Of a stretch of DNA of 64,000 nucleotides, positions 3,859 to 52,009 are shown piece after piece. Source of the DNA: a virus (Duplodnaviria > Heunggongvirae > Uroviricota > Caudoviricetes); IMG/VR virus record IMGVR_UViG_3300003097_000006; one strand, written 5' to 3'. Under the pieces are notes generated by a model. It did no database searches. It worked only from the letters and a program-made list of their open reading frames with translations, and was not told the origin of the DNA. A program made the position numbers and the translations under genes. The first letter of the stretch is position 1. Each line of letters starts with the position of its first letter.

Positions 3859-3860
3859 TG

Positions 3861-4046: not shown

Positions 4047-4047
4047 G

Positions 4048-5781: not shown

Positions 5782-5858
5782 TTTGTATTTACCTTTTCAT
5801 CTATTGGTTGGGAAGAATCTACATTATAAGAGGCTCCGAAGAACCTCTGAAATATAGA

Positions 5859-6340: not shown

Positions 6341-6349
6341 CTTTACCTA

Positions 6350-8299
6350 TTACTTGTTGTGGCTTGGAACCATTCCCAGTTCCAATTTTTTAGCGCAGGT
6401 TTCACAGCAAGGTGTGCTACCTACGAATTCTGTCGTTGCTGCCTTTTTGAATGGAATTTTATCATGACACCAAGAGCAGGTGTTCATTTCATTCCACTGA
6501 GACAGCGTGACCTTCATCCCATTTTGAAGAGTTTTACGATACGTCAGAATTGGACGAACGTTGCCCTTCGGTTTGTTAGCGTATTTGTTTGCAAAGCACT
6601 GCAAACAGACACACTCTTTTTCTGACTCTGCATCAACTGGAAGTTCAGTCGAACATTCGATACACTCGAAGCGAAGTTCTCCCAGTTGAGGCTCCCCCTT
6701 TGATTGTGACTCCTTTGGTTCAAGGCCGTCAATAAGACCGGCATCTACGCAGGCGTCACAGTAGGCGAAGTCACGGAACACAGTGGCATCAGCCATGAAG
6801 TCGAAGGGGATTGGAGAGCCACAATTTCCGCAGGAATTTAAACAATCGTGTCTCTCCCACTCCTTTTTTGTATAGACGCTACCATCTCTGGTTACGTCCA
6901 TTTCGTTACCGTCTGATTCCTCTTCTTCCATTTCTGGGTCTTGAGGGACGTCAACGTCGTCAGGAGTGTGTGTCTGAGCAATCAGCGCAGTTCCACGAAC
7001 AGTTGATGCAATGATATGTTCCATTTCATCATCTTCATCAAAATCATCATCCAAAGGAATTGGAGTGACATTGACAGTTTCGTCACGAACATCGCTGACA
7101 ATCAGAGTCAGAATGTAGTTGGCTTCATAAGCCGAGATAACTTTACCAGAGTACAGTTGCTCACCGCCATAGATGTTTTTATCAACACCATGACCCTGAA
7201 CTTCGATGTACTCACCTTCACCAATCCAGCCGGTCAGTTGACCACGCTCAGGATTTTTCGGATATGGTTCGAACTGGAATGCTTCGAACTTAATACGGTC
7301 ACCGATTACAGCATCAACGCCGTGGCTCTGAAGCATCTCATTTAACTGATGATGCTTTTCGAGCGTGGCTCTCATTTCTGATGTTTGATGAGTGTTGCTA
7401 GAAACGCGGTTTGGATAGCTGTTAGCCCCTCGATTATTGTGGGGCCAGCGGCTGTCGTAGTCGTCGTAGTCGTCGTCATACGAGTTATAGCCGCCCGAAT
7501 TCCAGTTGCGATAGTTGTAAGAATAGGTGGAGCGAAAGGTTGGAAGCTCATGCTTCACCTCCTCCCTAAACTTCAGCCCATCGGCGGTATCAAAGATATA
7601 CTGAACACCAACTTCGAGTTCAAACTCTTTTTCAATCGTCGGATTGAACTTCCGGCGAGACATAATCCATTTAATCATGTCTTTTTCGGAAGCACCATAC
7701 CAGTCACCGGTATTGGTTTTCATCATGTAGAAAGGACGCTCATCGTTTCGGATGAAATTCAGAGTGTTCTCTTTAGCATCATGCCAAACCAGAACGAACG
7801 CACCATGCAATTTCTTGATGGTTTCAGCGATACCGATTGTAGCAATCGAATAGCAGACATTTTCACTGTCTACTTCGAAACGCTTGTGGTCTGGTAACAA
7901 AGACTGGTCAACCAGTGAACCATTGTGAACCAGGGTGATATGCTCATGTTGGAAAGGGTGAGCGTTTTTGTCGTTAACCGCACCGGCAGTTGCATAACGG
8001 TTGTGACCAACCATGAACTTCGGATTGATTGAAGACGTCGTTGTTGCCTTCGTAACAGGGTTAACATTTTTGGTTTTGTGTTCTTTAACATCATCCCAGA
8101 TTTGGGAACGAACAAACATGTCACCTGGGATTGCTTTCTTTGCAATCTTAATGAAAGCTTGTTCATTATACGGCTTGTAATAAGCCATGACGCCAGTTGA
8201 GTGTTCACCACGGAAAGTGTCAGCAAACAACATGTTTTCAAAACGTTCGATATTAGCCGACGAAAGTGTCACGCCGCCCACAAATACGATTCCACACAT
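6350..8299 (-). CDS. class-II (Ntn) glutamine amidotransferase fused to a C-terminal array of CxxC zinc ribbons
   Basis: The protein starts MCGIVFVGG with a Cys2 nucleophile and carries GHNRYATAG, both characteristic of GATase class II (GlmS/AsnB/PurF-like). A Tyr/Asp/Asn-rich low-complexity linker follows. The C-terminus has at least 5 CxxC pairs (CGNCG, CDAC, CIEC, CLQC, CSWC, CETC). Confidence 0.7.
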   Translation of the reverse strand: MCGIVFVGGVTLSSANIERFENMLFADTFRGEHSTGVMAYYKPYNEQAFIKIAKKAIPGDMFVRSQIWDDVKEHKTKNVNPVTKATTTSSINPKFMVGHNRYATAGAVNDKNAHPFQHEHITLVHNGSLVDQSLLPDHKRFEVDSENVCYSIATIGIAETIKKLHGAFVLVWHDAKENTLNFIRNDERPFYMMKTNTGDWYGASEKDMIKWIMSRRKFNPTIEKEFELEVGVQYIFDTADGLKFREEVKHELPTFRSTYSYNYRNWNSGGYNSYDDDYDDYDSRWPHNNRGANSYPNRVSSNTHQTSEMRATLEKHHQLNEMLQSHGVDAVIGDRIKFEAFQFEPYPKNPERGQLTGWIGEGEYIEVQGHGVDKNIYGGEQLYSGKVISAYEANYILTLIVSDVRDETVNVTPIPLDDDFDEDDEMEHIIASTVRGTALIAQTHTPDDVDVPQDPEMEEEESDGNEMDVTRDGSVYTKKEWERHDCLNSCGNCGSPIPFDFMADATVFRDFAYCDACVDAGLIDGLEPKESQSKGEPQLGELRFECIECSTELPVDAESEKECVCLQCFANKYANKPKGNVRPILTYRKTLQNGMKVTLSQWNEMNTCSWCHDKIPFKKAATTEFVGSTPCCETCAKKLELGMVPSHNK

Positions 8300-8366
8300 G
8301 GGAAAGTTTCCTCTTGAAACATTTAAAGAAGGGGCTTTATGCCCCTATGATGGACGATAGTTCGTC

Positions 8367-10070
8367 TCAGAAGTTGGCTGTATCTTCGTCGTCTTCTTCG
8401 TCGTAACCTTCGTACTCTTCATCATCGTCTTCAAAAGAAGCACGACGTGGGGCCGGTTGAGGTACACTGCGGGAAGAGTAGAACTCACGATAGAGTTGAC
8501 GATGTTGATTCGGCAACTGACGAGGCACGAACCAGTCAGAGTCGAAGGTAATGCCGCGTTCACGACATTTCTCTTGCAACTCAGCCAACCATTCGAATGT
8601 AATTACATCCGGTGCTGAATCTGGGAACAACCACATACCGTCAGTATGTCGGCGCAATTCACGCTGAAGATGGTTGATATATGGGCTTTCAACCGTCACA
8701 CGCATTCTGCGAGATGTATCATCGGTTTCGTTACGAACGTTGTGAACGTAAACATTACGACGACGACACTTAGCCAGAGAAACCACATCGTGAGCCAGCT
8801 TATAACCAATCTCCATGTCTTGCTCAAAGTCCGGTAAGACTTTAGGCAGACCTTTGCGAATCGCTTGGTGAAGCGGAATCGTCATGAGATATTCGATGAA
8901 CGATGAATCATCGCCTTCGAAGTTCATTGCTAACTCTTTCAGCGAGAGGAAGCGGTTGACCAGGCGAATCAAACGACCTTTACGCCACTTCGCTTCACTG
9001 ATGCGGAACTCGATGGAACCGAAGCTCTGCATTGGAAGCAAGTTCAAGGACGTGTACTTGTCCCAGTTTGAAGCGATGCTACGCATGAAGTTCTGGTCGT
9101 CTTGTTCCCACGCACGAGCCAGAATAGCCAACTGGTCTTGGGCAAAGCCCAAAGCAACACAGAAGTTATTCTTGTAACGATGCCACCCTGAACATTTGAA
9201 CAGGATACGCTCGTAAACAATGTACGCCAGAATCATTCGCTTCAACTGAGGAGCAGTCATGTTACGAACGTCTACGTGGACATGAGTTGAACAACGCCAA
9301 GACTCATCCGGAGAGTTCGTGAACAAGAAGCTGTCGATTTCAATCGCAGCATTGTACAGGTCGCGTCCACCCCACGGAGATGAGCAGACAAATTCCATTC
9401 CGGAATTACGCAGAGAACCATCTGACTTAGCTTCCCAATACTGGAAGTTAGGGGGGTTGGAGGTCATGTTCTCCAATTCAATCTCAACCCCAGCGAGATT
9501 CTGACCCACAATCAGTGGGTGACTCTCAATTGTCGGATACGACGCTCGTTGTCCAAAAACCTGAGCAACAGTAACCATATTATTATCAACCTCTACGTTA
9601 CCAGATATGAAGTTTTCCTGATTAACACTTCCAAAGCTTCCGTTGCCTTGGCGAGGGTGGTCCTCATCAGACCAGTGGTAGACACCACTAACAGCACCAG
9701 GTGCATCATCAACCGGTTCTGTGTGAGCTGCTTGGAAGGGGTCAGAAGTTAGACTACCAGAACCCCCTCCAAAGGCGTGTGCAAATTGGGCATATCGACT
9801 GATTCCACCATTAGTACGTGAACGTGATGATACAGACTGAACTGTACGTTGACCGGATTCAGCTTCTGCTCTTGCACGTTCTTGACGTTCTCGGATTCGA
9901 GCTAAATCTCTGTCCCACATTGCCTGCCACTCATTTACCGCCCTTGTGGCATCTTCTGTTGGTGGAGCAGGTGGTGGAGCAGAAGCCTCACGGGCCTCTG
10001 CTTCTAAACGATTCCGGTCATTTTCAGACCGGATATGAGCCATTAACTCGTCGAAACTACGGTTTGGCAT
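8367..10070 (-). CDS. glutamine-synthetase-fold amidoligase (Amidoligase_2-like) with low-complexity N-terminus and acidic C-terminal tail
   Basis: Motifs VEIELENM, SGMEFVCSSP, THVHVDV and GSIEFRISEAKWRKGR give the Glu/Glu, HxH and ExR constellation of GS-like/GCS2 amidoligases. The protein is 567 aa. Confidence 0.6.
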   Translation of the reverse strand: MPNRSFDELMAHIRSENDRNRLEAEAREASAPPPAPPTEDATRAVNEWQAMWDRDLARIRERQERARAEAESGQRTVQSVSSRSRTNGGISRYAQFAHAFGGGSGSLTSDPFQAAHTEPVDDAPGAVSGVYHWSDEDHPRQGNGSFGSVNQENFISGNVEVDNNMVTVAQVFGQRASYPTIESHPLIVGQNLAGVEIELENMTSNPPNFQYWEAKSDGSLRNSGMEFVCSSPWGGRDLYNAAIEIDSFLFTNSPDESWRCSTHVHVDVRNMTAPQLKRMILAYIVYERILFKCSGWHRYKNNFCVALGFAQDQLAILARAWEQDDQNFMRSIASNWDKYTSLNLLPMQSFGSIEFRISEAKWRKGRLIRLVNRFLSLKELAMNFEGDDSSFIEYLMTIPLHQAIRKGLPKVLPDFEQDMEIGYKLAHDVVSLAKCRRRNVYVHNVRNETDDTSRRMRVTVESPYINHLQRELRRHTDGMWLFPDSAPDVITFEWLAELQEKCRERGITFDSDWFVPRQLPNQHRQLYREFYSSRSVPQPAPRRASFEDDDEEYEGYDEEDDEDTANF

Positions 10071-10648
10071 TCTGGGTACTCCTGACTCACTGAACGAAGC
10101 AAATGAGCCGCCTCTGGGAACAGCTCAATGCCTTCCCCGACGAACTTACCGATGTACACGTCTTTATAACGCAAATCATCATCAGTTTTGAGGAAGACGT
10201 TGCCAGACACTTCAGGATACTTGTGCTCACTAAAGAACTCAGCGATTGTATCCCAATCGAACACTGGCATTCCGCAAACACGGCGACTTGTCAGACCTTT
10301 CTTGGTCGAACGATTCGCACGATACGAAACCCAATAATAACGATTACGCCACTTAATGTAGCGAGAGTCTGGAAGTTCCAGAACCAACTTCTCGTCAGTG
10401 TGAGGAACTGAACGGTTTTCGTAATTACCGTTCGGATAACGAACTGTTCCGTGGAACACCAGAGCATCCAGTGCATCATCAGAGAAACCTAAAGTCTCAC
10501 GGTCAGATGCACTCATTGCTCGCAGGTTCATCACATTGTTATCGTGAGTTACCGCTTCAATTTGAAACGGCAACAAACCATGTTCAGGGTCACGATAACC
10601 GACGTAAGTCGAACAGTAATACATTCCGAAATCGTCGGATAAAGCCAT
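10043..10648 (-). CDS. hypothetical protein (201 aa) located between the two amidoligase paralogs
   Basis: Minus-strand ORF with no recognisable motif. Its position suggests it belongs to the ligase cluster. Confidence 0.55.
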   Translation of the reverse strand: MALSDDFGMYYCSTYVGYRDPEHGLLPFQIEAVTHDNNVMNLRAMSASDRETLGFSDDALDALVFHGTVRYPNGNYENRSVPHTDEKLVLELPDSRYIKWRNRYYWVSYRANRSTKKGLTSRRVCGMPVFDWDTIAEFFSEHKYPEVSGNVFLKTDDDLRYKDVYIGKFVGEGIELFPEAAHLLRSVSQEYPECQTVVSTS

Positions 10649-10658
10649 CTTGTGCTCC

Positions 10659-11462
10659 TTAGCAGATGTTCAACATACGGATGAACTGTTCCGCCATGTG
10701 TTTGTCGTTGTTGTTGATTGCCTTCTGAATATCTTCAGGGTTAACAATCGACACCATCTCCATGTAATCACCCTGAGACATGTCGAACGCTTTATGAGCC
10801 TGTTCCCAAGCCCAGCGACGATTATCGTCATTGGCAATCCAGAAGTTAGACAGAACACGATATTCAATACCGTACTCTTTGAAACGGCAAGCACCCGCTT
10901 TGCCATACAGCTCTTTACGACGGTCGTCGCCGTCCAGAAGAAGTGCAGGCAGACCCAGATAGTAATCACACATTACACCCATAACCTTCTGAAGTTCAGA
11001 GGTTACAGGAACCACACCGCTTACGCCAATGTGAATGTGACCACCTGCTGTACGGAGGCCTGGGTCAGCAGCAGCCGGTTTAGGGTTACGCATACCGGTC
11101 AGAGCATTGTAATCCGGCTCACAACCGAATACGAATGCATCTTTGTGGAATGATAATAACTCTTCCGGCGTGAAGATGTGAGAACTCACACCGAGAATAA
11201 CTTCGTGACCAACTTCTGCAACAGCCTCTTGACATAAGTCAATGCCGCGCTTAATGTTGTCATTGAAGCCGTCAAAATCACCATGCGGGTTGGTATCAAA
11301 CTCAACCAGCACGTTATCTTCCTGAATACGAATGTCGTCCGTGACTACCTTTTTGTTGTACTTGTCCGCTCCCAGCAGACCTGCAACTGAACTGATAAGG
11401 TTGCTGCTCACATTACGGGTGAACAGTTCAGGGTCAGTTGCCAACAAAATGACTTTAGACAT
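10659..11462 (-). CDS. second glutamine-synthetase-fold amidoligase paralog (267 aa)
   Basis: VLVEFDTNPHGDFDG, GGHIHIG and EYGIEYRVL reproduce the E-x-E, HxH and E-x-R pattern of GS-like amidoligases. Confidence 0.55.
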   Translation of the reverse strand: MSKVILLATDPELFTRNVSSNLISSVAGLLGADKYNKKVVTDDIRIQEDNVLVEFDTNPHGDFDGFNDNIKRGIDLCQEAVAEVGHEVILGVSSHIFTPEELLSFHKDAFVFGCEPDYNALTGMRNPKPAAADPGLRTAGGHIHIGVSGVVPVTSELQKVMGVMCDYYLGLPALLLDGDDRRKELYGKAGACRFKEYGIEYRVLSNFWIANDDNRRWAWEQAHKAFDMSQGDYMEMVSIVNPEDIQKAINNNDKHMAEQFIRMLNIC

Positions 11463-11476
11463 TTCTATATCCTTAA

Positions 11477-12550
11477 TTAAAGACGTGGTGGAATGTTGTT
11501 ATCGGTACAGAATTGAGCAAGACGCTCAATAAGAAGCTCAGCCTTCTCATCGCTTAAGCTCTCCTGTAGATATGTGATATCATCTAAGAAAAACTTAAAC
11601 CCAAGAACACTGTTCCATTGTTGAATTTCTTCATCAATGGGAACATCCCCCGGAATACTGAACACGTCAATCATGTGCCAATATTTACGAGGACACATTG
11701 GTACTCGGTCTTCACGACCCCAGTTTTGAAGCTCAGCAGCAACATCACGGCTCTTTGTCGTGAAGTTCCAAAGGAACCCTTCATAACGTTCGTCGAACCA
11801 GATTTCGTTTCTGCGGAACCATTCTTCGCGGAAGTAGCCTTTAGACTCACTCCACTTGTGCTGCTTCCACCGGAAAGCTTCCAGATTCTGACCCATAAGG
11901 TTCAGGAACCCTTGACGACCCAGTGTATCAGGACTACACCAGTTATACTCACCGGTTTGTGTGTTCTGAATTACAGCTTTAGGAGCACGACCGAAAGTAC
12001 CTGGCATCACATCAATGTAAACCATGTGCGCCACAACAGCCGCGAAACGAGGACGATAACCTTTGTTCAGTAACCAACGATAACCCATTGCGAAGTTACC
12101 GTATTGAGCCAAGTTACGGAAAAGGTAGAGAGCCAACATGATTTGGTCGGCAGTGTGGTCTTTGATATGCACACGAATGCCGCCGATGAGGGGGTGGACA
12201 GTCACAAGACCTGCCAACATTGGCAAGTCTTCAACCAAATCCTTCATCATGTTCAGAAAGTTACGGTTTGCGGTTTTACGAGCATCGGTTCGAGATACGT
12301 CGCTAGGCCAGTCACGAGTCGAGTAATCAGACTGGTCGTAGCACCAAATTGGATGAATCCCATGAAGAGAGTCATACAAAATGAATGCATGGTCAGAGCC
12401 ATCACGGTCTAACAGACTGTGTACGTTGCTTCCAGAGAAGCTGAACGGTCTCTGCTCATGCCAACGGGCGTTTCCCATAACCCCGAAGCAAATGGATTCG
12501 TTTGAAAAACGGTTCCCATCCTTGAAAACCACACTGTAACGTACTGACAT
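11477..12550 (-). CDS. hypothetical protein (357 aa)
   Basis: Minus-strand ORF, Trp-rich, no recognisable motif. Confidence 0.55.
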   Translation of the reverse strand: MSVRYSVVFKDGNRFSNESICFGVMGNARWHEQRPFSFSGSNVHSLLDRDGSDHAFILYDSLHGIHPIWCYDQSDYSTRDWPSDVSRTDARKTANRNFLNMMKDLVEDLPMLAGLVTVHPLIGGIRVHIKDHTADQIMLALYLFRNLAQYGNFAMGYRWLLNKGYRPRFAAVVAHMVYIDVMPGTFGRAPKAVIQNTQTGEYNWCSPDTLGRQGFLNLMGQNLEAFRWKQHKWSESKGYFREEWFRRNEIWFDERYEGFLWNFTTKSRDVAAELQNWGREDRVPMCPRKYWHMIDVFSIPGDVPIDEEIQQWNSVLGFKFFLDDITYLQESLSDEKAELLIERLAQFCTDNNIPPRL

Positions 12551-12551
12551 T

Positions 12552-13463
12552 TTATTCCCCTTTATTATCTTTCAGTACTTTCTCCCACACCGCCTGAGCA
12601 AGCTTCAGGAATTCACTTTCAACAAAGCGATGATGGTTTCCAAAACTGTTGTTGATAGTCAACAGTTCAGTTTTATCCCAATCTTCCGGGATGTTTTCCA
12701 GAGACGTTAACATCGTTGTATCAGTCAGAGTACAACGACGACCGGTACGTGGGTTAACTGGAGCAGAACCATCCCCGTAGTTACCATAACGACCGTAACC
12801 CTGCTCTGTATCACCGAACACGCCTTGATAGATTTTACCTAATCCACCTTCCATCATGTTGATGAGGTCAGCAACGGTTACTTCGTCACCGAATACACAT
12901 TCATCTCCACCCTGACCTTGCCAGAACGAGTATTCGGATGAACCGAAGCTCTTATTGCACTGATAGGTCATTGCCATGACGAACGAGAATGGAACATCGA
13001 AACCGGCAGTACGCAGAATCATGTACGAGTTCCCGAATGAGCTGTACTCAATCAGGTTACGCAGCATCATTGCGCCCATCACAGTAGTCTGCATGTTTTG
13101 GTCAGCCAGTGGAATATAAATATCACCGGTATCAAAACCGCCAAGTTCCAGACCTGGATAACTCTCATCTTCATCCAGAATCTTAAACCCACTGAAATAC
13201 TGAGGGAATGCTGCCAGAATTTCTGGAAGCTCCTGATTAATCAGCTGAGTTCCATCGCACCCAGATGGGCCAGGTGACCAAACCATATGGCTCAATTCAC
13301 CAGATGAGAAACCACTGAGAGGACCGGCTACATACTCGTCCTCTTCGTCATCCCATTGTTCGTTATCTTCATCCCACTGTTCGATGTAGGATAAAAATCC
13401 AAAGCAAGGTTTTGAAAACTCTTCACTTGCACCTCGCTTATTAAACACCGTAGCCATTACCAT
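12552..13463 (-). CDS. hypothetical protein (303 aa), acidic N-terminus
   Basis: Minus-strand ORF, Gly/Tyr-rich, no recognisable motif. Confidence 0.55.
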   Translation of the reverse strand: MVMATVFNKRGASEEFSKPCFGFLSYIEQWDEDNEQWDDEEDEYVAGPLSGFSSGELSHMVWSPGPSGCDGTQLINQELPEILAAFPQYFSGFKILDEDESYPGLELGGFDTGDIYIPLADQNMQTTVMGAMMLRNLIEYSSFGNSYMILRTAGFDVPFSFVMAMTYQCNKSFGSSEYSFWQGQGGDECVFGDEVTVADLINMMEGGLGKIYQGVFGDTEQGYGRYGNYGDGSAPVNPRTGRRCTLTDTTMLTSLENIPEDWDKTELLTINNSFGNHHRFVESEFLKLAQAVWEKVLKDNKGE

Positions 13464-13540
13464 TGTATTGTTACCTCTTTAGTAAGATTCATCAAGAGCC
13501 CCTCCCGAGGGGAGAGGCGCTTTGAGTATCCGACTAATTA

Positions 13541-13936
13541 TTAGTTAGCCGCTTCTTTTGCTTTGGCTTCTTCCCAAGCCGCATCAAGCGCCAGGACTTT
13601 ACCAGTCTGCGCATCGATGAATTGGGACATCTGAACACGATGGAATTTGTATTGCAGCGCGTCGGCCATCAGTTCGGTATACTGCTGGGCCAGGAAGCTA
13701 CGAGCCGCTACCAGCGCTTTCTGAGAATGACCACCTTTACCTTCACGGATTTTCAGGTTCAGGTCACGCAGGTTTTCGGAGATGATTTTACGCAGCACTT
13801 TTGCAGCGGTGGTTTCGACGTTGAAACGGAAACGGTCGCGGCGGGCACGGGTCAGGATGGAACCTTCGGATTTAACAACTTCGCCCAGAGCGATTGCAGC
13901 AGTGATTACGATTTTGGAAGTAGTGGTAGTAGTCAT
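13541..13936 (-). CDS. hypothetical protein (131 aa)
   Basis: Minus-strand ORF. A GC-rich hairpin lies downstream at about 13494-13512. Confidence 0.55.
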   Translation of the reverse strand: MTTTTTSKIVITAAIALGEVVKSEGSILTRARRDRFRFNVETTAAKVLRKIISENLRDLNLKIREGKGGHSQKALVAARSFLAQQYTELMADALQYKFHRVQMSQFIDAQTGKVLALDAAWEEAKAKEAAN

Positions 13937-14011
13937 GGTTAAATACCTTTTATCGATTTGACTTGGATTGGGAAGATTTTACTACAGTTTCAAACTGGTA
14001 CTGCCGGGTGA

Positions 14012-14209
14012 TTAGCCCAGCAGGTTGTCAAAGAAAGCTTTTACTTTGGAGATTTTAGCGCCTTCGGCTTCGCACTCAGCGACTTGCTTCTGAGCTTTTT
14101 CAAGCTCCGCATTGTTGAAGTCTTCCGCAGCTTGCAGTTCTTCCTGCGCTTTGGTGAAGGTCTTCATTGCTGAAGCGAAGGTTGGTTTACCGGTGATAGC
14201 TGTCAACAT
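14012..14209 (-). CDS. hypothetical protein (65 aa)
   Basis: Minus-strand ORF. Confidence 0.45.
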   Translation of the reverse strand: MLTAITGKPTFASAMKTFTKAQEELQAAEDFNNAELEKAQKQVAECEAEGAKISKVKAFFDNLLG

Positions 14210-14221
14210 TGGTGAATCCTC

Positions 14222-14479
14222 TTAGATTTTAGCGTTAAGTTCGACGACTGATGCCGCCTGGAAGGTTGATTGTGATGTGATGTGAGGCTGCACAACAACA
14301 CCATTGCTCAAGTCAACTAAGCTGAAGGTAGAAGAATGAGAACCTTCAAACTTAATCTTCATGAACATTGTTTCTGTCAGGATTGTATCCTGAGCTGTTT
14401 TCATGCGGACAACTTGTCCACATCCTACATCTGAAAAACTAACCCAGGGGTTTCCCCCTGAATTAATAGTTACTTTCAT
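14222..14479 (-). CDS. hypothetical protein (85 aa)
   Basis: Minus-strand ORF. Confidence 0.45.
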   Translation of the reverse strand: MKVTINSGGNPWVSFSDVGCGQVVRMKTAQDTILTETMFMKIKFEGSHSSTFSLVDLSNGVVVQPHITSQSTFQAASVVELNAKI

Positions 14480-14483
14480 AGTC

Positions 14484-14972
14484 CTATTCTCTTAAGAAGT
14501 AATGGTTACCGTACTTGTAAGCACGTTTACCTTTAGCCCAATAGGGTCTGTCGCTCCCACTGTAGAAGTGAACAAACTTGTACTTGGGAATGTAACCGGG
14601 CTTCATTACTTTGTACGCAACTTGAGCAGCTTGGAAATACGCATGACGTTCCTTGTCACCAAACTTTCGTTCAGCGAACAGCTTCTCTTGATAACGTATC
14701 AAACCATTGAAGTCTTTGGATTTAAGGCGTTTAGTCCAGTTAAACTGGTTGGACTGTAGAACAACTTTGCAAACGTCATTCGGGTACTTTTCGTTATGAA
14801 CACGAGTTATCACTGTATCAGCGACAATCTCCATGCCCTTAGTACCTTCGCCTCCGGCCTCCGTGTAAATGTTAAGGGTGAGTGCTAACCAGCACACTAA
14901 AAAGCTCATCGGGGATTGACTCTCCTTATAGCCGCCATTGAGTTTAAAAAAGGACTCTGTTTCCAGAGCCAA
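14484..14972 (-). CDS. cell-wall hydrolase (SleB/Hydrolase_2-like); candidate endolysin with N-terminal hydrophobic (possible signal-anchor-release) segment
   Basis: TEAGGEGTKGMEIVADTVITRVHNEKYPNDVCKVVLQSNQFNWT matches the conserved block of the SleB family (EAxGE...NRV...VVxQxxQFS). The N-terminus MSFLVCWLALTLNIYT is hydrophobic. Confidence 0.6.
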   Translation of the reverse strand: MALETESFFKLNGGYKESQSPMSFLVCWLALTLNIYTEAGGEGTKGMEIVADTVITRVHNEKYPNDVCKVVLQSNQFNWTKRLKSKDFNGLIRYQEKLFAERKFGDKERHAYFQAAQVAYKVMKPGYIPKYKFVHFYSGSDRPYWAKGKRAYKYGNHYFLRE

Positions 14973-15153
14973 ACTTTAAAGCCAATGTAAACTGTGGATA
15001 ACCTGTTCTTTTACTCTATTCGGCGGATGTTCGAGCATTTGCTCTCCCTAGCACCGAAGCCATACGGCAATTGTTTAAAAGAATAGGTTAGTGAGTTACC
15101 CTGTTAAAATAACTCCAATAGCCCTCTCGTAAGAAGGCTATAAGTGTTACTTA

Positions 15154-36715: not shown

Positions 36716-36856
36716 TGTTTTCAATCTTTTTCAGTGTAAAGTTGTAATGTTTTCTTCTTAACAGTGCTATAAGTCAATGTAGCATCTGTAAGGATATGAA
36801 TTCTATGACAGATGGGTGGAAGGTGGGAGCTACATTAGTTGAAGGAGTGATGTGTA

Positions 36857-42554: not shown

Positions 42555-43612
42555 TGGCTAATGACGCTATCGAAGTAACCAATCAAGAAGTAACCAACCC
42601 TATGTTTATCGACACTGACAACTTCAACTTCTTCGATTTGGAAGACGTTGTGCAGGAAGATACTAACGAGTTGGGTTATTCCACCAAACAAACTGGCAAA
42701 GACCTCATGACCAAAGATGAAATCTCTGACCTCGTAGGTGAAGATGAGGAAGAATCTGAGGAAGAAGAGCACGATGAGCTCCCAGATGAGGGTGATGAGG
42801 ACGAAAATGATGAGTCCGAGGAAACTGAGGAAGGCGAAGTCGAAGTAACCGATGAAGACGGTGAAGAAGTTGACTTTGAATCCTATGAAGTAACCCTGCC
42901 GTCAGGCGAAGTTGTAGTTCTGAGTGAAGCTATTCAGGGTTATAAAGCTGCTGCTGAATTGAAAGCTGAACGTGAAGAGTTTGAAACAACTCGTGATGCG
43001 TTTGCACAAGAATCAGAGAAAGTTGCTAAATATCTTGAACTGGCTCGTCTTGAAGCTGACCGTGTTATCGAAGATTATGAAGATTTCGATTGGGCTGCTT
43101 ATAAGAAAGACGACCCTGTAGGTTATGTTGAGAACCGTGAGTTCCTTGACCGCTATAAAGCTCGTCGTCAGGAAATTCTGGCTGCTCAGCAAGAACTCGA
43201 AGAAGAAAAAGCTGCTAAGGATGCAGAAGAGTTTAAAGTCAAGGCTCGTGAAGCGGGTGTAGTTCTGGCTCGTGATATCCCTGGCTGGAATAACGACCTG
43301 TATCAGCAACTGATGGTTTACGCTGTAGAGAACGGTGCTAACGCTGAAGAAATCGCTAACTCTGTTGACCCAACTATCTTTAAGATTCTGTATAAAGCTA
43401 TGCAGTATGAGAAAGGTAAGCAGGTTGTTAAGGCGAAAGTTAAACGTGTTGGTGGTTCTCCGAAGAAAGTTGCTACCCCATCTGCTAAACCTGCTCCTAC
43501 TTCAGAGGCTACCCAGAAGGGTGCTGCTAAGAAAGCAATCATCAAGAAAATGGAGAATGGCGGTCTGAACGAACGTGAACTGCGTAATTCCTTCAATTTC
43601 CTGGAAGATTAA
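42554..43612 (+). CDS. scaffolding protein (acidic, coiled-coil, 352 aa)
   Basis: Contains poly-Glu/Asp stretches (EDEEESEEEEHDELPDEGDEDENDESEETEEGE) followed by long helical segments. It lies directly upstream of the capsid gene. Confidence 0.55.
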   Translation: MANDAIEVTNQEVTNPMFIDTDNFNFFDLEDVVQEDTNELGYSTKQTGKDLMTKDEISDLVGEDEEESEEEEHDELPDEGDEDENDESEETEEGEVEVTDEDGEEVDFESYEVTLPSGEVVVLSEAIQGYKAAAELKAEREEFETTRDAFAQESEKVAKYLELARLEADRVIEDYEDFDWAAYKKDDPVGYVENREFLDRYKARRQEILAAQQELEEEKAAKDAEEFKVKAREAGVVLARDIPGWNNDLYQQLMVYAVENGANAEEIANSVDPTIFKILYKAMQYEKGKQVVKAKVKRVGGSPKKVATPSAKPAPTSEATQKGAAKKAIIKKMENGGLNERELRNSFNFLED

Positions 43613-43736
43613 TAGGTTAATCTGTAAGGCAATGTAACAAAACGTACTATAATAGTATGTTAACAACAAGGAAATGCCTTGTGTGCTTAACTCAAGCCGC
43701 AAGGCAACTACAATATATTCAGAGGAGAATTCTCTA

Positions 43737-44675
43737 ATGGCAGATACTACTTTAGTTTCTTACGACCTGAACGGTAAGAAACTCTCTTTTGCAAACTGGA
43801 TTTCGAACCTGTCTCCTACTGAGACCCCGTTCGTATCTATGACTGGTAAAGAAGCAATCAATCAGACCCTGTTCCAATGGCAGACTGATACCCTTGAAAC
43901 TGCGAATGCGAACAACGCCGTAGTTGAAGGTTCTGCTGCTGAAGCACCAGTTCGTAGCTCTACCACTGTACTGTCCAACGTTACCCAGATTCTGCGTAAA
44001 GTTGTTCGTGTTTCTGACACTGCTAACGCTCTGGCGAACTATGGCCGTGGTCAAGAACTCCAGTACCAGATGGAAAAAGCTGGTAAAGAAATCAAACGTG
44101 ACCTCGAAGTTGCGCTGCTGCGTAACGGTGCGAAGGTTGATGGTTCTGGCACTGTAGCACGTAAGACCGCTGGCTTTAAAGCTCTGGTTGCTGCTAAAGA
44201 TGCTGCTGACCCAGATACCGGTGCAGTAGTTCACAAAGAAACTGCGGCTTCTGGTGTAATTACCGAAGCAGAGCTGTTTGACCTGACATACAACCTGTAC
44301 CTGTCCGGTTCTAACGCTAACATCATCATGTTCCACCCGAAACACGCAAGCTTCTTCGCGTCTCTGATGGAAACTCCGGCTGCTGGTGCAAACCGTATGA
44401 AGATGTTCGATGGTCAAGATACCAAGTTCAACCAGTACGTTTCTACCGTAGTTGACCCGCTGGGTCAGTTGTTCAAACTGATTCCTAACCGTTGGATGGG
44501 CGAAGCTGATGTTTACTTCTTCACTCCTTCTGACTGGACTCAGATGGTACTGCGCGCTCCACAGCGTACCAAACTGGCGAAAGACGGTTCCTACGAAAAA
44601 TGGATGGTTGAGATGGAAGTTGGTCTGCGTCACCGCAACCCGTATGCTTCCGGCATCCTGTCTATCAAAGCTTAA
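43737..44675 (+). CDS. major capsid protein, lambda gpE-like (312 aa)
   Basis: A GAGGAG ribosome-binding site is present. NANIIMFHPKHASFFASL resembles the lambda gpE block NIIVFDPKGWALFRSF. A strong intrinsic terminator follows the gene. Confidence 0.75.
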   Translation: MADTTLVSYDLNGKKLSFANWISNLSPTETPFVSMTGKEAINQTLFQWQTDTLETANANNAVVEGSAAEAPVRSSTTVLSNVTQILRKVVRVSDTANALANYGRGQELQYQMEKAGKEIKRDLEVALLRNGAKVDGSGTVARKTAGFKALVAAKDAADPDTGAVVHKETAASGVITEAELFDLTYNLYLSGSNANIIMFHPKHASFFASLMETPAAGANRMKMFDGQDTKFNQYVSTVVDPLGQLFKLIPNRWMGEADVYFFTPSDWTQMVLRAPQRTKLAKDGSYEKWMVEMEVGLRHRNPYASGILSIKA

Positions 44676-44695
44676 TCGTAAGTTTTGAAACCTTT

Positions 44696-44728
44696 AAAGG
44701 GGAGGAGAAATCCTCTCCTTTTTTTTTT
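44696..44728 (+). terminator. Rho-independent terminator after the major capsid gene
   Basis: A 10-bp stem AAAGGGGAGG/CCTCTCCTTT with loop AGAAAT, followed by T10. Confidence 0.75.
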
Positions 44729-44752
44729 GAAAAAGTTCTAGGAGAATACTAG

Positions 44753-46510
44753 ATGGCAGATACCACATTAGTATCCTATGACCTGAATGGTAAGAAACTT
44801 TCATTTGCGAACTGGATTTCCAATCTGTCCCCAGATGAAACACCCTTCGTGTCCATGACAGGCAAGGAGAGCATTGCTCAAACTCTTTTCCAATGGCAGA
44901 CTGACTCGCTCGAAGCAGCCGTTGATAATAACGCAGTTGTTGAAGGCTCACAAGCTGAAGCACCTATTAGAAAAACAACCCTGACACTCAACAACGTTAC
45001 TCAAATCCTTCGCAAAGTAGTTAAAGTTTCCGATACATCTCAGAGCTTGGCTAACTATGGTCGTGGTAATGAACTGAAGTATCAAATGGAGAAAGCAGGT
45101 AAAGAGATTAAGCGTGACTTGGAAGTAATTTTCCTTTCTGCTCAAGATAGAGTAGATGGTGATGCAACTACCATTCCTCGCAAAACCGCAGCATTCCAGA
45201 AACTTGTTGCAGCATTTGAAGTAGCAGACCCAGACACAGGTGCTATCGTTCATAAGGCAATGGCAGGTGAAACTCCTACCGAATCCGAAATCTTTGATAT
45301 CACTTACAACCTGTATCTGTCAGGCTCCAAAGCAAACATTATCATGTTCCATCCTAAGTTTGCTTCCTTCTTCAGTTCACTGATGGAAGTTTCTCAGACT
45401 GGCAACCGTGTTAAACTGTTTGATGGTGAAGATACTCGTTACAACAAATATGTGACTGAAGTGGTTGACCCACTGGGTTGCACTTATAAGCTGGTTCCAA
45501 ACCGTTGGATGCCAGAAAAAGCAATCTACTTCCTCAGTGCATCTGATTGGACTCAAATGGTTCTCCGTGCTCCAGAAAGAACTAAGCTTGCAAAAGACGG
45601 TTCTTATGAGAAGTGGATGTTGGAAATGGAAGTTGGTCTGAGACACCGTCACCCTTATGCCTCTGGTATTCTGGTAACTGCAAGTGCTGCTCCGGCTGAC
45701 CCAGTTGCCTCAATTGCACTGAACAACACAAACTTCTACGGCGGTTTGAATGCTCTGCAAGTTGGTGCTGCTGCTACTTCCGATGCTGTTGCTGCTACAA
45801 CCTCTACAGCTAACGTAACTATTCTGCCATCTGGTGCAAACCAAGCGTTTACTGCCGTGAGCTCTGCTCCTGCTGTTGCAACGGTTGCAATCCAAGGTAG
45901 TTCTGTTAAGATTACTGCTGTGAGTGCTGGTACTGCAACCCTGACTGTTACTTCTGTTGGTGACCCGACTAAGACTGCAACTGCTACAATTACTGTTTAT
46001 GATAGAAGTGTTTCTACTGATTCCTTCTCTAATCAGCCGTTGTATGTAGGTCAGACTCAGACTATCGGTAAGTCAATCGATGTTTCAACCCCTGCTCCAA
46101 CTTGGAGTTACGTATCTCTGGATACATCGGTTGCGACAGTTAACAGTTCTGGTGTGACTACTGCTGTTGGTTCTGGCTTTACCCGTATCCGTGCAATCGC
46201 TGCTGTAAACGGTATTCGCTTCTTCGACCAATCTGGTATTGATGTTGAAGCTGCTGTAGTGGTGACTGCAACTGGTGGTGCTGCAACTGTTGCCTCTGGC
46301 TCTACAGTAAATCTTGCTTCTGCATTTAGTGCAACCCCTGCATCTGCTCAGACTAAGGGCTTCACTTATGCATCCAGCAATGACACTAACGCAAGCGTAG
46401 ATGCTTCTGGTGTTGTGACTGGTAAAGTTGCTAGTACAAGTGTTACAATTACTGCAACTTCTAAAGCAGACACAACTAAGTCCGCAACTAAAGTTGTAAA
46501 CGTGACCTAA
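44753..46510 (+). CDS. capsid-protein paralog with C-terminal tandem Ig-like (Big_2-type) domains (585 aa)
   Basis: The first roughly 310 aa are about 70% identical in protein sequence to gene 43737..44675 but heavily diverged at synonymous sites. The C-terminal roughly 270 aa are Thr/Ala/Val/Ser-rich repeats (ITAVSAGTATLTVTSVGDPTKTATATITV etc.). Confidence 0.7.
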   Translation: MADTTLVSYDLNGKKLSFANWISNLSPDETPFVSMTGKESIAQTLFQWQTDSLEAAVDNNAVVEGSQAEAPIRKTTLTLNNVTQILRKVVKVSDTSQSLANYGRGNELKYQMEKAGKEIKRDLEVIFLSAQDRVDGDATTIPRKTAAFQKLVAAFEVADPDTGAIVHKAMAGETPTESEIFDITYNLYLSGSKANIIMFHPKFASFFSSLMEVSQTGNRVKLFDGEDTRYNKYVTEVVDPLGCTYKLVPNRWMPEKAIYFLSASDWTQMVLRAPERTKLAKDGSYEKWMLEMEVGLRHRHPYASGILVTASAAPADPVASIALNNTNFYGGLNALQVGAAATSDAVAATTSTANVTILPSGANQAFTAVSSAPAVATVAIQGSSVKITAVSAGTATLTVTSVGDPTKTATATITVYDRSVSTDSFSNQPLYVGQTQTIGKSIDVSTPAPTWSYVSLDTSVATVNSSGVTTAVGSGFTRIRAIAAVNGIRFFDQSGIDVEAAVVVTATGGAATVASGSTVNLASAFSATPASAQTKGFTYASSNDTNASVDASGVVTGKVASTSVTITATSKADTTKSATKVVNVT

Positions 46511-46523
46511 TACGTCAACCTAA

Positions 46524-46554
46524 GAGGGGCAGGGGTAATCCCCTCCCCTTTTTT
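46524..46554 (+). terminator. Rho-independent terminator after the Ig-decorated capsid paralog
   Basis: GAGGGGCAGGGG-TAAT-CCCCTCCCC followed by TTTTTT. Confidence 0.6.
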
Positions 46555-46572
46555 CGTTTCTGGAGGTTAATA

Positions 46573-46857
46573 ATGGCTGTACCAGCTCCGCTGTACAAAC
46601 TTAACTATCCTATCGAATCTGCTGAAGCTAAGAAGTTCTGGTCTTCTAATCTGAAGTTGAACAGAATCAAAGCAATCATCGCTTTCTCTCTTGATTTAGA
46701 GAACGCCAATGACAACTTGAGAAGATATGGATATTCCAAACAATATAGAAATCGCGCATTGAGAGCATTTGGCCAATACGTGAATAATCCAACAATGGCA
46801 GGTGTTCCCTTCAACCAGTTGGAAGACAAATGGTGGGAAGAAATGCCATACGCATAA
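46573..46857 (+). CDS. hypothetical virion protein (94 aa)
   Basis: A GGAGG ribosome-binding site is present. Located in the structural module. Confidence 0.55.
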   Translation: MAVPAPLYKLNYPIESAEAKKFWSSNLKLNRIKAIIAFSLDLENANDNLRRYGYSKQYRNRALRAFGQYVNNPTMAGVPFNQLEDKWWEEMPYA

Positions 46858-46871: not shown

Positions 46872-47063
46872 ATGTGGGCTTTCTTTGTTAAAGCCCTCGT
46901 GGCATTTGGGTACAACCTAATGGTAGCGCTTGTTGGTGAGGCGATGATTCAGTGGGTGTTCTTCAAAGTGACACGTTGGCTTGCCTCTAAGACCAAAACC
47001 AAAGTCGATGATGAGTTTATCGAAAAGTTAGAAGATAACTACAAACGCGGTAAGGGTGGTTAA
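46872..47063 (+). CDS. small membrane protein (63 aa)
   Basis: The N-terminal hydrophobic segment FFVKALVAFGYNLMVALVGEAMIQWVFF is followed by a charged tail. Confidence 0.5.
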   Translation: MWAFFVKALVAFGYNLMVALVGEAMIQWVFFKVTRWLASKTKTKVDDEFIEKLEDNYKRGKGG

Positions 47064-47108
47064 TAATCGGAACTAAGAGAGTATGCAAGTGCTCTCTTTG
47101 GAGGAAAG

Positions 47109-48569: not shown

Positions 48570-51459
48570 TGCTTTATCGAATGCTAACTTTGACCAGAAC
48601 GATGTTGAATCAATGATGCAGGGACATTTGCTGTTCCTGCAAAAGAATACTGGTAGAACGGATGATGCTACTCAGCAACACTACGTTTTCAACCCAGAAA
48701 TGATTCTCTCGAACAACAGGCACTTCATTGCAAGGGCCCAGATGGAAGCACAGCCAAACGGTGATGCTACAACTGAAGGTCAGTCACTCCAAATCATTGG
48801 TTTCTGTTATGCATATATGGCTACAGGTGTTCCTGAATATCTACAAGCAGCAAGAGATTGTTTTGATGCGTACATTGACCACTTCTATGCAGGACAACCA
48901 ATTCCAAACTCACCTCAGCGTTACATCTGTAACTGGCTGGTGAATGGTAAAGAACCTGTACTGGCTAACTGGCCTGTAGACCTTGAATTTCCGACTCACT
49001 CCGGTTTCAAAGGTGTGATGATGAATTTCACCAATGGTAGAACTCAAATCCCTCATGGTGCTCCATATTGGGGCGAGTACGTTGATAAGGTTACGTTTGC
49101 TTTTGATGGTGCATTAGGTTGGGATTCAATTGTAGGTGCAGTTAAGGGTATCAACCCCGACGGTTCTACGGACTGGAACTCTGATGGTGTTCAATACGAT
49201 TGTGAATGGGTAATCTCGTACACTGGTCAGAAGATTACTGGTGATGCTTGGAAGGGTAATGACATTGATGGGAATTATCGTGAAGGGTCTGGCTGGATTC
49301 TGTCTGAAGGTCATCCAACATCTGAAATCGGTACAGTTCAACTCGGTAACAAGAACGTCCAAGGTAATCACAAGTTAAACTGGGGTAACAGGCAGCCAGT
49401 TGAGCATGGTGGTTATATGATGCAAAGGAATGAAGTGTGGCATAACCGTCCACTCAACGTTCCAGTAGCAGTTGACAAAGGTGATGGTCAAGGTCGTCCA
49501 TACGGTCAGCTCGGTAACGCATCTGATGCCGAACAGTGGTTTGCTGATGCTGCTTATTTGCTGTATAAGATTACTGGTGAGTCAAAATACTGGACTGTTT
49601 GGCAATGTGTTATTGAAACGGTAACTGAATACTCCAACATTGACGCTGTAGATAGATTCTTCCGTCAAGAAGTTGGTGCAAACACTCCGTGGACTGATGG
49701 CATCTCTTATGACTACCAATATCCATCTGGAAACAAGGTTGGTTACATTCGTGACGAGAACGGCTACATCGGCGTCACAGTAGCTGAGGGTGGTTCTAAC
49801 ACAATGGAGCAACAGGCCGTTTGGTATCTGTGTGATAACAACTCTAAGGTGAGAACTACGATTGGAGGGAGAGGTAACTTAGGTGAAAACCTGAACGTTG
49901 AAGTGACAATTAGTATGGCTAATAGTAAAACTGAGCCTGAAGCTAATTGGACTATTTGGAAGGCGAATTTGCCGTACCCATCAGAACAGCCGAACATTAT
50001 CGACACTAAGATGAATGAATTCCTTCAATTAAGACGTGAAGACGGTTCTGAATTCGTAATGGCAGATAGTCGCTCTGTTGTAAACTATGGTGCTTCTGAG
50101 AACACAATGATGTTCCAAGATAATATCATTGATGGTCGTACAGCACAAGTTTCCTACAACACTTTGCGTAACTCTGGTTCTGGTGTGATTATTGGTTTCT
50201 GGTTGCTGGAAAGCAAGAGACTTGATGTTACTTCAATCGTTATGAAAAGTAACATGGGGTTAGATATCGGAATCACTGACGATAACGGTTGGTACTGGCA
50301 CTGGCAGGTTCCTTCGACTGGTAACCAATGGAAAGAAGTTTCACTACCTCGCTCTGGTTTGATTATTAATGATTATCAAGCGAACCCTGGTACCCCTCCA
50401 TCAGCTCCGTCTTATACAACTGTAGACCAAATTGAGATTACTCAGACTAGTAACAACCCAAGTGGTGAGTTTACTTGGTATTCAGTGAACGAAATGCCAA
50501 GACGTTATAATCTGGGTAAACGTTACTTGATGAAATACTCAATGAACGTTCGTAACTCTGACTCTGGTTTCAGTTATAAGGTTGGTGACTGTATGGTTGT
50601 GGACTATCTGGATGGTGACCTGTTCTGTACTCCAGGTGTTATTCCATTCTCAAATATCTACACCGAGGGTTCTCAACAGTTTGATGGTTGGCATGGTATG
50701 CCTTATCCTGGCTATCAATATCCATTTGTTTGGTTATTCAGGCCCAACTTTAAAACCAGACTGAATAACATGGTCGAGTTTATGTATCAATCTCAAACTT
50801 GGTTCCAAGGTAGATTTGGTACTCTCGGGCCAGGTGCTTCAGCCTATATCTGGAACCGTTGGGATAACTACAAATATGGTACACCAGATACCTGGACTAT
50901 GTACCACTGGGGTAGTGACCACGCTTGGGCAGGTTATCAGCCTCGTGCTTACTTTGGTGCTGCTCGTGCTTGGTACGAATTGGTACTTGAAGGGGAAACT
51001 GTTCCACCGAAACTGATTACATATGTTGAAAACTGGACTAAGTTCCTGTCTAAGACAATGGAAGCGAATGGTGGTTACTCTCCAACTGACTTTACAACAG
51101 ATGGTAGGGTAATTTGTGACCCCAATGACTTTACTGGTCATATGTGCGGTTTGTTCTTGGCAGGTGCTTGTATCTCATATTTGGCAGGTGCTAAAACCCC
51201 TGGTATTGAGAATCTGATTGAAATGTTAGCTGCTGAACTGAGCAGAAACTATCAAATCACCCCAACCCCAGACCATGTGATGAACGGCTCTTGGAGTCCT
51301 GCACTGAGATTGGGTACTGGTTCTGGTCCAGAAAACAATGGTATGTTCTTTGGCTTCTGGTCTGGTGAAATCCTGAGAGGCTTAGGCTTATACCTTCTTT
51401 ATAAGAAACTGTCTCCTAAAGATGACATGTACGAATACTCACAGGAGGAACATTCATGA
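48562..51459 (+). CDS. large tail protein, possibly a tailspike or receptor-binding protein (about 965 aa)
   Basis: The ATG at 48562 overlaps the stop of the previous gene. Trp/Gly/Asn-rich sequence typical of fibre or spike beta-structure. No enzymatic motif recognised. Confidence 0.6.
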   Translation: MLNALSNANFDQNDVESMMQGHLLFLQKNTGRTDDATQQHYVFNPEMILSNNRHFIARAQMEAQPNGDATTEGQSLQIIGFCYAYMATGVPEYLQAARDCFDAYIDHFYAGQPIPNSPQRYICNWLVNGKEPVLANWPVDLEFPTHSGFKGVMMNFTNGRTQIPHGAPYWGEYVDKVTFAFDGALGWDSIVGAVKGINPDGSTDWNSDGVQYDCEWVISYTGQKITGDAWKGNDIDGNYREGSGWILSEGHPTSEIGTVQLGNKNVQGNHKLNWGNRQPVEHGGYMMQRNEVWHNRPLNVPVAVDKGDGQGRPYGQLGNASDAEQWFADAAYLLYKITGESKYWTVWQCVIETVTEYSNIDAVDRFFRQEVGANTPWTDGISYDYQYPSGNKVGYIRDENGYIGVTVAEGGSNTMEQQAVWYLCDNNSKVRTTIGGRGNLGENLNVEVTISMANSKTEPEANWTIWKANLPYPSEQPNIIDTKMNEFLQLRREDGSEFVMADSRSVVNYGASENTMMFQDNIIDGRTAQVSYNTLRNSGSGVIIGFWLLESKRLDVTSIVMKSNMGLDIGITDDNGWYWHWQVPSTGNQWKEVSLPRSGLIINDYQANPGTPPSAPSYTTVDQIEITQTSNNPSGEFTWYSVNEMPRRYNLGKRYLMKYSMNVRNSDSGFSYKVGDCMVVDYLDGDLFCTPGVIPFSNIYTEGSQQFDGWHGMPYPGYQYPFVWLFRPNFKTRLNNMVEFMYQSQTWFQGRFGTLGPGASAYIWNRWDNYKYGTPDTWTMYHWGSDHAWAGYQPRAYFGAARAWYELVLEGETVPPKLITYVENWTKFLSKTMEANGGYSPTDFTTDGRVICDPNDFTGHMCGLFLAGACISYLAGAKTPGIENLIEMLAAELSRNYQITPTPDHVMNGSWSPALRLGTGSGPENNGMFFGFWSGEILRGLGLYLLYKKLSPKDDMYEYSQEEHS

Positions 51460-51914: not shown

Positions 51915-52009
51915 TCAATTGACAAAAGCTGCTTTTAGTGCTGATTGGTAAGAACTCTTACTGAAAGGCACTAAAAGTTGTGTCAAGTGGAAAATAATGG
52001 GATACTGAA

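Follow-up and report, generated by a model that had tools for sequence, protein, structure and literature searches.

Programmed frameshifting is the textbook phage route to a fixed minority of an extended structural protein. The podophages of Kuravirus (phiEco32, SU10, YF01) and Privateervirus (Privateer, P59) apply it to their capsid gene: one gene gives a plain major capsid protein (MCP) and a minority MCP with C-terminal Big_2 and/or I-set domains, both with identical cores, the ratio is set at translation by a −1 slip at G-GGA-AAG, and a terminator follows the capsid unit. Mass spectrometry of SU10 virions detected two forms, one of 38.5 kDa and one of 55.4 kDa that is fused to a downstream Ig-like open reading frame (ORF) (PMC4281155). 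Privateer has a GGGAAAG site, and its longer minor capsid protein was found in CsCl-purified virions with SDS-PAGE as well as mass spectrometry (PMC7881722). YF01 and other phages of the Kuravirus group have been described with the same frameshift scheme (PMC9965538). Here we analysed a tandem pair of capsid genes, A and B, in a virus of the Caudoviricetes (IMG/VR record IMGVR_UViG_3300003097_000006; the window is the whole stretch of 64,000 nucleotides (nt), and all features described are on its + strand). The two-gene layout of this locus appears to do what these relatives do from one gene by frameshifting.

Gene A (43737..44675) encodes a 312-amino-acid (aa) MCP of the SU10_MCP/HK97 fold without any extension, homologous to gp008 of Salmonella phage 7-11 (96.5% identical). 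After a spacer of 77 nt, gene B (44753..46510, 585 aa) encodes a long capsid paralogue in which a core paralogous to A (residues 1-308, 44753..45676, Pfam PF17236) is followed by an Ig tail. BLASTP aligned A with the first ~307-308 residues of B at 230/309 identical positions (74%, E 5e-175). The tandem capsid pair is real and not a chance similarity, and the two genes with a common N-terminal region described in an earlier note on this DNA were recovered as ORFs. Over 310 aligned codons, nucleotide identity was 69% and third-position identity only 43%; at 123 of the 217 identical residues with degenerate codons the codon was different. Divergence between the copies (dN 0.21, dS 2.3-2.8, the latter saturated), together with the low dN/dS of both against 7-11 (see below), bears out the claim of the note that the duplication is old and that both copies are under protein-level selection.

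Both proteins matched the SU10_MCP family (PF17236, curated cut-off 24.1 bits), A with E 1.2e-83 (281 bits) and B with E about 1e-77 to 1.2e-76 (258 bits). The 'gpE-like' assignment of the earlier note had to be given up: no Pfam match to the lambda gpE family (Phage_cap_E) was obtained at E <= 0.01. The HK97 fold was indicated by a phmmer match to the SU10 capsid protein (PDB 7z45, E 6e-104) and by an AlphaFold2 model, made for B only from 55 homologues. The top Foldseek matches of this model were SU10 capsid chains (E 1e-32, TM about 0.7), followed by HK97; phi29 gp8 and multi-Ig arrays were also among its matches. Behind the HK97-type core the model shows three all-beta beta-sandwiches with pLDDT >90 (~residues 316-416, 420-499 and 503-584), and the whole of B scored 36.2 bits against Big_2 (PF02368, curated cut-off 22.8). 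Ig-like domain 1 (45698..46000), preceded by an Ala/Pro-rich linker, is borderline on its own (E 1e-4, 22.6 bits against the cut-off of 22.8) and was modelled with pLDDT about 90. Domain 2 (46010..46249) falls below the cut-off alone (E 0.01, 16.2 bits) and was modelled with pLDDT >90. Domain 3, with the stop codon (46259..46510), passes alone (E 9e-7, 29.2 bits; pLDDT about 96). With a Big_2 match in each third of the tail and three modelled beta-sandwiches, the three Ig-like domains proposed for B held up.

At the DNA level the region is about 90% identical to two Salmonella phages with unusually elongated heads, SE131 and 7-11 (Moazamivirus, Grimontviridae). Since 2011 the GenBank record of 7-11 has listed two 'major head proteins', gp008 and gp009, and a rho-independent terminator between them, without interpretation; in the searchable literature, the 2011 genome paper not included, we found no paper interpreting this pair. 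Tandem short and long capsid genes are present in Moazamivirus (7-11, SE131), in the unclassified 7-11-like phage pSal-SNUABM-01, in the plasmid-dependent phage PKM.Hi.22.6 (a relative of Lundtoftevirus Lu221), in Crifsvirus (GAP52, ECO319P1, A24) and in Aeromonas phage BUCT695, which has the same layout of promoter, short MCP, terminator and long MCP. Privateervirus, Lahexavirus, Kuravirus and KSP100 have a single capsid gene. The lineage of 7-11, Lundtoftevirus, Crifsvirus and BUCT695 lacks the slippery site and encodes the Ig-tailed form in a second gene. The locus shares with Kuravirus and Privateervirus an SU10-type core (56-84% identical) and the head module order. Unlike these phages, it has two genes with cores that are 74% identical and can evolve independently, no slippery site, and a ratio that would depend chiefly on termination of transcription and on codon usage.

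For comparison, the slip sites were read directly in relatives. The capsid gene of P59 ends in ...GCG-GGA-AAG-TAA, and the −1 frame stays open for 169 codons, through an I-set and a Big_2 domain, before a terminator; in phiEco32 the −1 frame leads straight into the Big_2 ORF. In Aeromonas phage 4_4572 (4412-4693), the −1 frame is open past the capsid stop into an I-set domain, next to a heptamer (GGTAAAG, G-GUA-AAG) one base off the canonical one. In the record, this stretch carries no annotation beyond a 75-aa 'hypothetical protein', and the sequence makes an unannotated frameshift isoform probable. The SU10 record (KM044272, 4541-4581) differs from phiEco32 (4541-4580) by a 1-nt indel just past GGGAAAG; its −1 frame is closed by a stop about 12 codons on, and the Ig ORF is found in frame 0, preceded by TAA-CAG-TAG. 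The indel may be a sequencing error or, if real, may bear on the long isoform missing from the cryo-EM of SU10 (see below).

Neither A nor B contains an in-frame X_XXY_YYZ heptamer, and GGGAAAG does not occur within 43600-46600. No alternative-frame Ig ORF overlaps the end of A, where the +1 frame runs into a stop immediately. In the −1 frame, 48 codons are open (44609-44752), from inside the 3' end of A through the terminator to a TAG adjoining the ATG of B, and B lies in that frame; given that there is no slippery site, the open frame is probably due to chance. A frameshift or read-through product fusing A to B was rejected on the same grounds, no slippery heptamer being present and the open frame ending at the TAG beside the B start codon. 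The Ig domains of B are in frame with its capsid core. In Crifsvirus, A ends with ...VKAGA and a stop codon exactly where P59 goes on with ...VKAGAGK and a stop codon over the slip site, which supports a lost frameshift. Since the slippery site is absent and there are two genes, the same two products as in the relatives, a plain MCP and an Ig-tailed MCP, come from separate genes. Judged by its sequence, the A/B pair works like the frameshift-isoform family but does not belong to it.

The expression signals of the two genes differ. Upstream of A lies a late promoter motif (TGTAAGG-N16-ACTA, 43623..43649) that is homologous to P8, a 7-11 promoter that the phage sigma factor gp47 recognises; it matches the published consensus exactly and is predicted to be active here. 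The late promoter consensus of 7-11 is GTAAtg-(16)-aCTA, and the promoter upstream of gene 8 was mapped by primer extension, as were gp47-read late promoters upstream of genes 1, 16, 22, 28, 48 and 69; P12 was active in vitro only, no promoter was reported at gene 9, and the next late promoter downstream of P8 that is active in vivo is P16 (PMC8948821). The motif is kept upstream of A, or of the single MCP gene, in 11 relatives and in BUCT695. A separate promoter for B was rejected, as neither a sigma-70 scan nor the strict late motif nor a looser consensus with 15-17 nt spacing gave a match in the 77-nt spacer. With the looser consensus, the match at 43624 is followed on the + strand by the next one at 47050, the position of P12. 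Late-consensus matches in the window lie at 36744-36769, 47050-47075, 50321-50346 and 51948-51973; those starting at 36744, 47050 and 51948 coincide with, or lie close to, the places where P1, P12 and P16 of 7-11 would be expected.

The terminator that the earlier note had placed between the two genes is present. This intrinsic terminator, T1 (44696..44728), has arms at 44696-44706 and 44711-44721, a GAAA loop and ten T at 44719-44728; its stem comprises 11 pairs, including three A-U and one G-U. The hairpin and T-run are kept in 8/8 aligned tandem-bearing genomes with one compensatory GC/AU stem pair, an equivalent hairpin and T-run separate the two MCP genes of BUCT695, and the 7-11 counterpart is the annotated rho-independent terminator mentioned above. 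A second intrinsic terminator, T2 (about 46524-46554; GGGGCAGGGG-TAAT-CCCCTCCCC, six T), follows B; it has a 9-bp G/C stem and is conserved in 5 genomes. T1 and T2 both fit the description of a rho-independent terminator, a G+C-rich hairpin with an immediate U-run. As B has no promoter and T1 is conserved, the dependence of B on read-through can soundly be inferred. With the adaptor and fibre genes downstream as well, T1 must be leaky.

Further signals favour A. Its 5' leader contains a 13-bp hairpin (43675..43706; minimum free energy −22.4 kcal/mol, z −3.2, none of 200 shuffles as stable), a probable mRNA stabiliser, and no such hairpin was found in the leader of B. Leader hairpins with unrelated stem sequences are present in the same place in GAP52, P59, BUCT695 and Aeromonas phage 4_4572, which suggests a structurally conserved mRNA stabiliser or processing element. 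The 17 nt directly before the ATG of A form a ribosome-binding element (CAGAGGAGAATTCTCTA, 43720..43736) that is nearly invariant in 10/11 genomes of four genera (Moazamivirus, Crifsvirus, Privateervirus and that of PKM.Hi.22.6) despite the divergence of the remaining leader; the element is partly palindromic and includes an EcoRI site. B has a Shine-Dalgarno sequence, AGGAG (44740..44744), 8 nt 5' of its ATG. Codon bias was strongest in A within the head module (effective number of codons, Nc, 33.8; frequency of optimal codons, Fop, 0.78), compared to an Nc of 43.6 and a Fop of 0.57 in the B core, close to that of the portal gene (Fop 0.55), and the same contrast was seen in 7-11. Horizontal acquisition of B is an unlikely cause of this difference, as the third-position GC content and Fop of B match the head module and A is the outlier. 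The signals point to an expression gradient of A >> B > downstream genes, brought about by partial termination and reinforced at translation. Of the earlier proposal that read-through fixes B at a sub-stoichiometric level, the read-through dependence stands; the terminator as the sole setter of the ratio does not, in view of the codon bias and the leader hairpin.

In a bootstrapped neighbour-joining tree of the capsid cores, all B copies were monophyletic (75%) and the A copies grouped with the MCP of Privateervirus (99%). A recent duplication within each phage, concerted evolution and gene conversion were rejected, A and B being sisters in 0.4% of the replicates. In BUCT695 the short copy grouped with A (67%) and the long copy with B (51%). 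The tree of the scaffold protein joined the tandem-bearing phages (98%) and left Privateervirus outside. Taken together, the trees make it most likely that one old duplication occurred in the common ancestor of Moazamivirus, Lundtoftevirus (PKM.Hi.22.6), Crifsvirus and BUCT695, after the split from the frameshift users, and that B has evolved faster since.

The number of Ig domains in B varies between lineages, from about half a domain in Crifsvirus through one in BUCT695 and three here to five Big_2 stretches in PKM.Hi.22.6, as expected of an exposed accessory module. The B protein of the latter phage, which depends on conjugative pili, has 778 aa (3656-5992 of its locus); the linker-Ig1-Ig2 block was apparently duplicated internally, which would account for the extra length, and its core is the most diverged of the B copies (74% identical to B here, compared to 93% for the A copies). 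In Crifsvirus GAP52 (5453-6075), ECO319P1 and A24, the long copy ends with TAA TAA in the middle of Big_2, its tail covering profile positions 2-46. The next ORF of GAP52 begins 2 nt downstream, with its own Shine-Dalgarno site, and starts with profile positions 45-79; thus, one Ig domain is split over two polypeptides. The split was seen in the three Crifsvirus isolates and in several metagenomic clusters of 361-366 aa. A frameshift at the junction of GAP52 B and ORF012 was rejected, given the double stop, an alternative frame open for 4 codons only, the Shine-Dalgarno site of the next ORF and the lack of a plausible slippery site.

Selection differed along B. Compared to 7-11, dN/dS was 0.078 in A, 0.027 in the B core, about 0.09 in Ig1-Ig2 and 0.23 in Ig3. 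Ig3 was the fastest-diverging domain (71% identical, dN 0.22, dS 0.96), and the two proximal Ig domains were 96-98% identical (dS 0.14-0.28). The C-terminal strand of Ig3 (46259-46507) is closer to pSal-SNUABM-01 than to 7-11, and recombinational exchange of the tip domain is suggested. These values depict B as a constrained shell protein whose tip domain would turn over fast, by diversification or module exchange. The dS against 7-11 was lower in A (0.28) than in B (0.44), as expected if the codon choice of A is itself selected.

We consider that these observations are best explained by a two-gene 'major plus Ig-extended minor capsid protein' system of podophages with the C3 morphotype, an elongated head, to which we give a probability of about 0.62. 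A would be the bulk shell subunit, made in large amounts from the late promoter by means of the phage sigma factor, the leader hairpin and optimised codons. T1 would stop most transcripts, so that B would be translated from read-through only, and its ordinary codons, with the second terminator behind it, would keep it at much smaller amounts than A. With its fully constrained HK97 core, B would take ordinary lattice positions beside A, its three Big_2 domains projecting outward, most likely for weak, reversible adhesion to surface carbohydrates. In the ancestor, a single capsid gene would have yielded both products through a −1 slip at a G-GGA-AAG located at its end; after the duplication, the upstream copy would have lost the slippery site and the extension, and the downstream copy would have become a permanent in-frame fusion.

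T7 10B, phi29 gp8 and Hoc-type adhesins serve as analogies for the co-assembly with an outward Ig string that we favour. In T7 gene 10A/10B (and T3 gene 10) with T-phi, as here, the major and minor forms differ by a C-terminal extension, and the capsid gene has a strong late promoter before it and a leaky terminator behind it; unlike here, a frameshift within one gene produces them, the capsid belongs to another sequence family and the T7 extension is not Ig-like. The extension of T7 10B is displayed on the surface, which is the basis of T7 display. That of T3 gene 10 is Ig-like (PMC5009743). Phi29 is likewise a prolate podophage with an HK97 core and a C-terminal BIG2 domain on the shell subunit, gp8; it has a single capsid gene and the domain on every subunit, whereas here it is restricted to the minority paralogue. 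T4 Hoc also places strings of Ig-like domains on the head, and they are thought to be weakly adhesive (PMC10385173; Fraser et al. 2006, cited in PMC9965538), but Hoc is a separate protein binding the finished lattice, while here the Ig string would be a covalent part of a lattice subunit.

Several points weigh against this explanation. In the searchable literature we found no virion proteomics or structure of any 7-11-like phage, and cryo-EM of SU10 revealed no density for the long isoform, nor was there a gel band of it (PMC9509320; PMC9965538), so that at least one relative makes the Ig form sparingly or not always, or loses it on purification. The abundance, and even the constancy, of the Ig-bearing subunit in this group is consequently uncertain. 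The cores of A and B differ at 26% of positions, which makes their random co-assembly an assumption. As to the history, the support for a single-origin clade in the scaffold tree fell to 60% once BUCT695 was added, and the MCP tree alone puts B outside A plus Privateervirus; a duplication of greater age, with B lost in Privateervirus, would also fit.

The alternative that survives best, although we regard it as unlikely, is that B is a position-specific shell protein that forms the pentons or caps the ends of the prolate head, its Ig domains marking the vertices. Tandem MCP paralogues with divided labour do exist, in T4 genes 23/24 (PMC3012670) and in Jabs MCPh/MCPp (bioRxiv 10.64898/2026.07.24.740622). 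Like A and B, gp23/gp24 and the Jabs proteins are encoded by adjacent paralogous HK97-fold capsid genes and serve one shell, as B presumably does. In the prolate SU10-like head, 55/715 subunits are pentons, a fraction compatible with a strongly attenuated gene (PMC9509320), and the A and B clades differ by 8 fixed residues, with a B core that is very tight (dN/dS 0.027). However, the T4 and Jabs pairs are highly diverged, with a division into hexon and penton subunits, compared to the 74% identity, 8 fixed differences and predicted external Ig tail found here, and in SU10 a single polypeptide makes up both pentamers and hexamers (PMC9509320). The core of the ancestral long isoform is identical to that of the short one, so that position specificity is not ancestral.

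Comparison of the copies across genera pointed the same way. In the core, 233/308 columns were invariant among the A copies and 187/308 among the B copies; 61 columns were invariant in A and variable in B and 15 the reverse, which indicates greater variability of B and not a new fixed design. No clade-specific indels were present, and A and B hardly differ in the N-arm (residues 1-40) or over the last ~50 residues of the core. Extensive fixed divergence, the mark of a vertex specialist, was thus not found, and the few fixed differences and the lack of indels fit a subunit in the lattice positions of A and poorly fit a redesigned vertex protein. The B of Crifsvirus, with about half an Ig domain, further indicates that the tail is not a conserved vertex feature. 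Among the three roles that the earlier note had put forward for B, the best fit is surface adhesion; these data weaken the vertex-specific, gp24-like role, and no evidence was found for head-length determination by B.

Somewhat less probable still is that B is a dispensable or assembly-only paralogue, made at a low level and either not stably incorporated or without a measurable contribution. T7 10B can be dispensed with in the laboratory. A role of this kind would agree with SU10, whose reconstruction and gel lacked the long form (PMC9509320; PMC9965538), with Privateervirus, which has no B gene, and with Crifsvirus, whose B is cut off within the first Ig domain. Against it, the core of B is under stronger purifying selection than A, Ig1-Ig2 have a dN/dS of about 0.09, and the B gene, its Shine-Dalgarno sequence and both flanking terminators have been kept over several genera and many metagenomic relatives. 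Moreover, mass spectrometry found the long isoform in the virions of Privateer (PMC7881722) and SU10 (PMC4281155). Least probable as a separate explanation is that T1 acts as the customary insulator behind a very strongly transcribed capsid gene, as T-phi does behind T7 gene 10, shielding the tail genes from over-expression with low B as a by-product: the distance from P8 to P16 in 7-11 (PMC8948821) implies that the adaptor and fibre genes need T1/T2 read-through as well, and the terminator after the Ig ORF in the frameshift users P59 and SU10 makes a terminator behind the capsid unit ancestral, but the tandem lineage has one terminator between the capsid genes and a second after B, which doses B apart from both A and the tail genes, and the insulator refines the two-gene explanation rather than replacing it.

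Tandem capsid genes of this family are not limited to pairs. A database search with B retrieved 282 relatives, many with C-terminal extensions of 100-560 residues, and in one contig a 775-aa copy lies ahead of a 490-aa copy. In two uncultivated relatives the number is higher: seven consecutive SU10_MCP paralogues were found in Logan contig SRR26596595_2634 (56,456 nt; 4901-15037) and eight in scaffold_8 of ENA ERZ28629128 (188,957 nt; 4429-14917). These paralogues, of 307-753 aa, sit where the capsid gene normally lies, with the shortest copy last: ahead of them come terminase, portal, a 73-aa ORF and the scaffold gene, behind them a very large gene, and the head module is otherwise standard. 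Their N-arms are nearly identical and their C-terminal tails different. The tails gave no Pfam match; a D-x-G-x-Y...V-x-V motif seen by eye is the sole basis for regarding them as Ig-like. The array members form a clade of their own with sister pairs within a contig (95-100%), which indicates further, independent duplications. Such arrays are not described in the searchable literature as far as we could find; for tandem capsid paralogues in tailed phages, it gave nothing relevant apart from T4-type cases and Jabs. The pair in the window looks like the smallest instance of a recurrent tendency in this capsid family. That SU10-type capsid genes are generally prone to tandem amplification, with the core and N-arm kept and a different Ig-like tail on each copy, the present pair being the minimal case and the arrays of 7-8 copies the extreme, is a generalisation that we put forward only tentatively.

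The pair itself is already annotated in the close relative 7-11, and the new part is its proposed explanation, gene duplication plus terminator attenuation in place of frameshifting. The lineage appears to have swapped a translational device for gene duplication and transcriptional attenuation. As close relatives keep the frameshift, the setting of stoichiometry and the evolutionary constraint can be compared directly between the two arrangements, and after the duplication the core and tip of the minor subunit can evolve independently of the major one. The exchange of mechanism is neat and experimentally useful; the greater surprise lies with the multi-copy arrays, found outside the window. 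The role of Ig-like domains on phage heads is a long-open question that now becomes testable, because the separate gene B can be deleted, swapped or re-dosed without touching the MCP, which is impossible in the frameshift systems. Relatives of 7-11 are candidates for Salmonella biocontrol, and B would offer them a natural capsid display site. If the copies do co-assemble and the tendency to tandem amplification is true, these phages would have mosaic heads with a graded, genetically encoded set of adhesins, a natural multivalent phage display, which here would have arisen by turning a frameshift-encoded isoform into separate, independently evolving genes. The arrays of 7-8 copies suggest that mosaic capsids may be commoner than thought.

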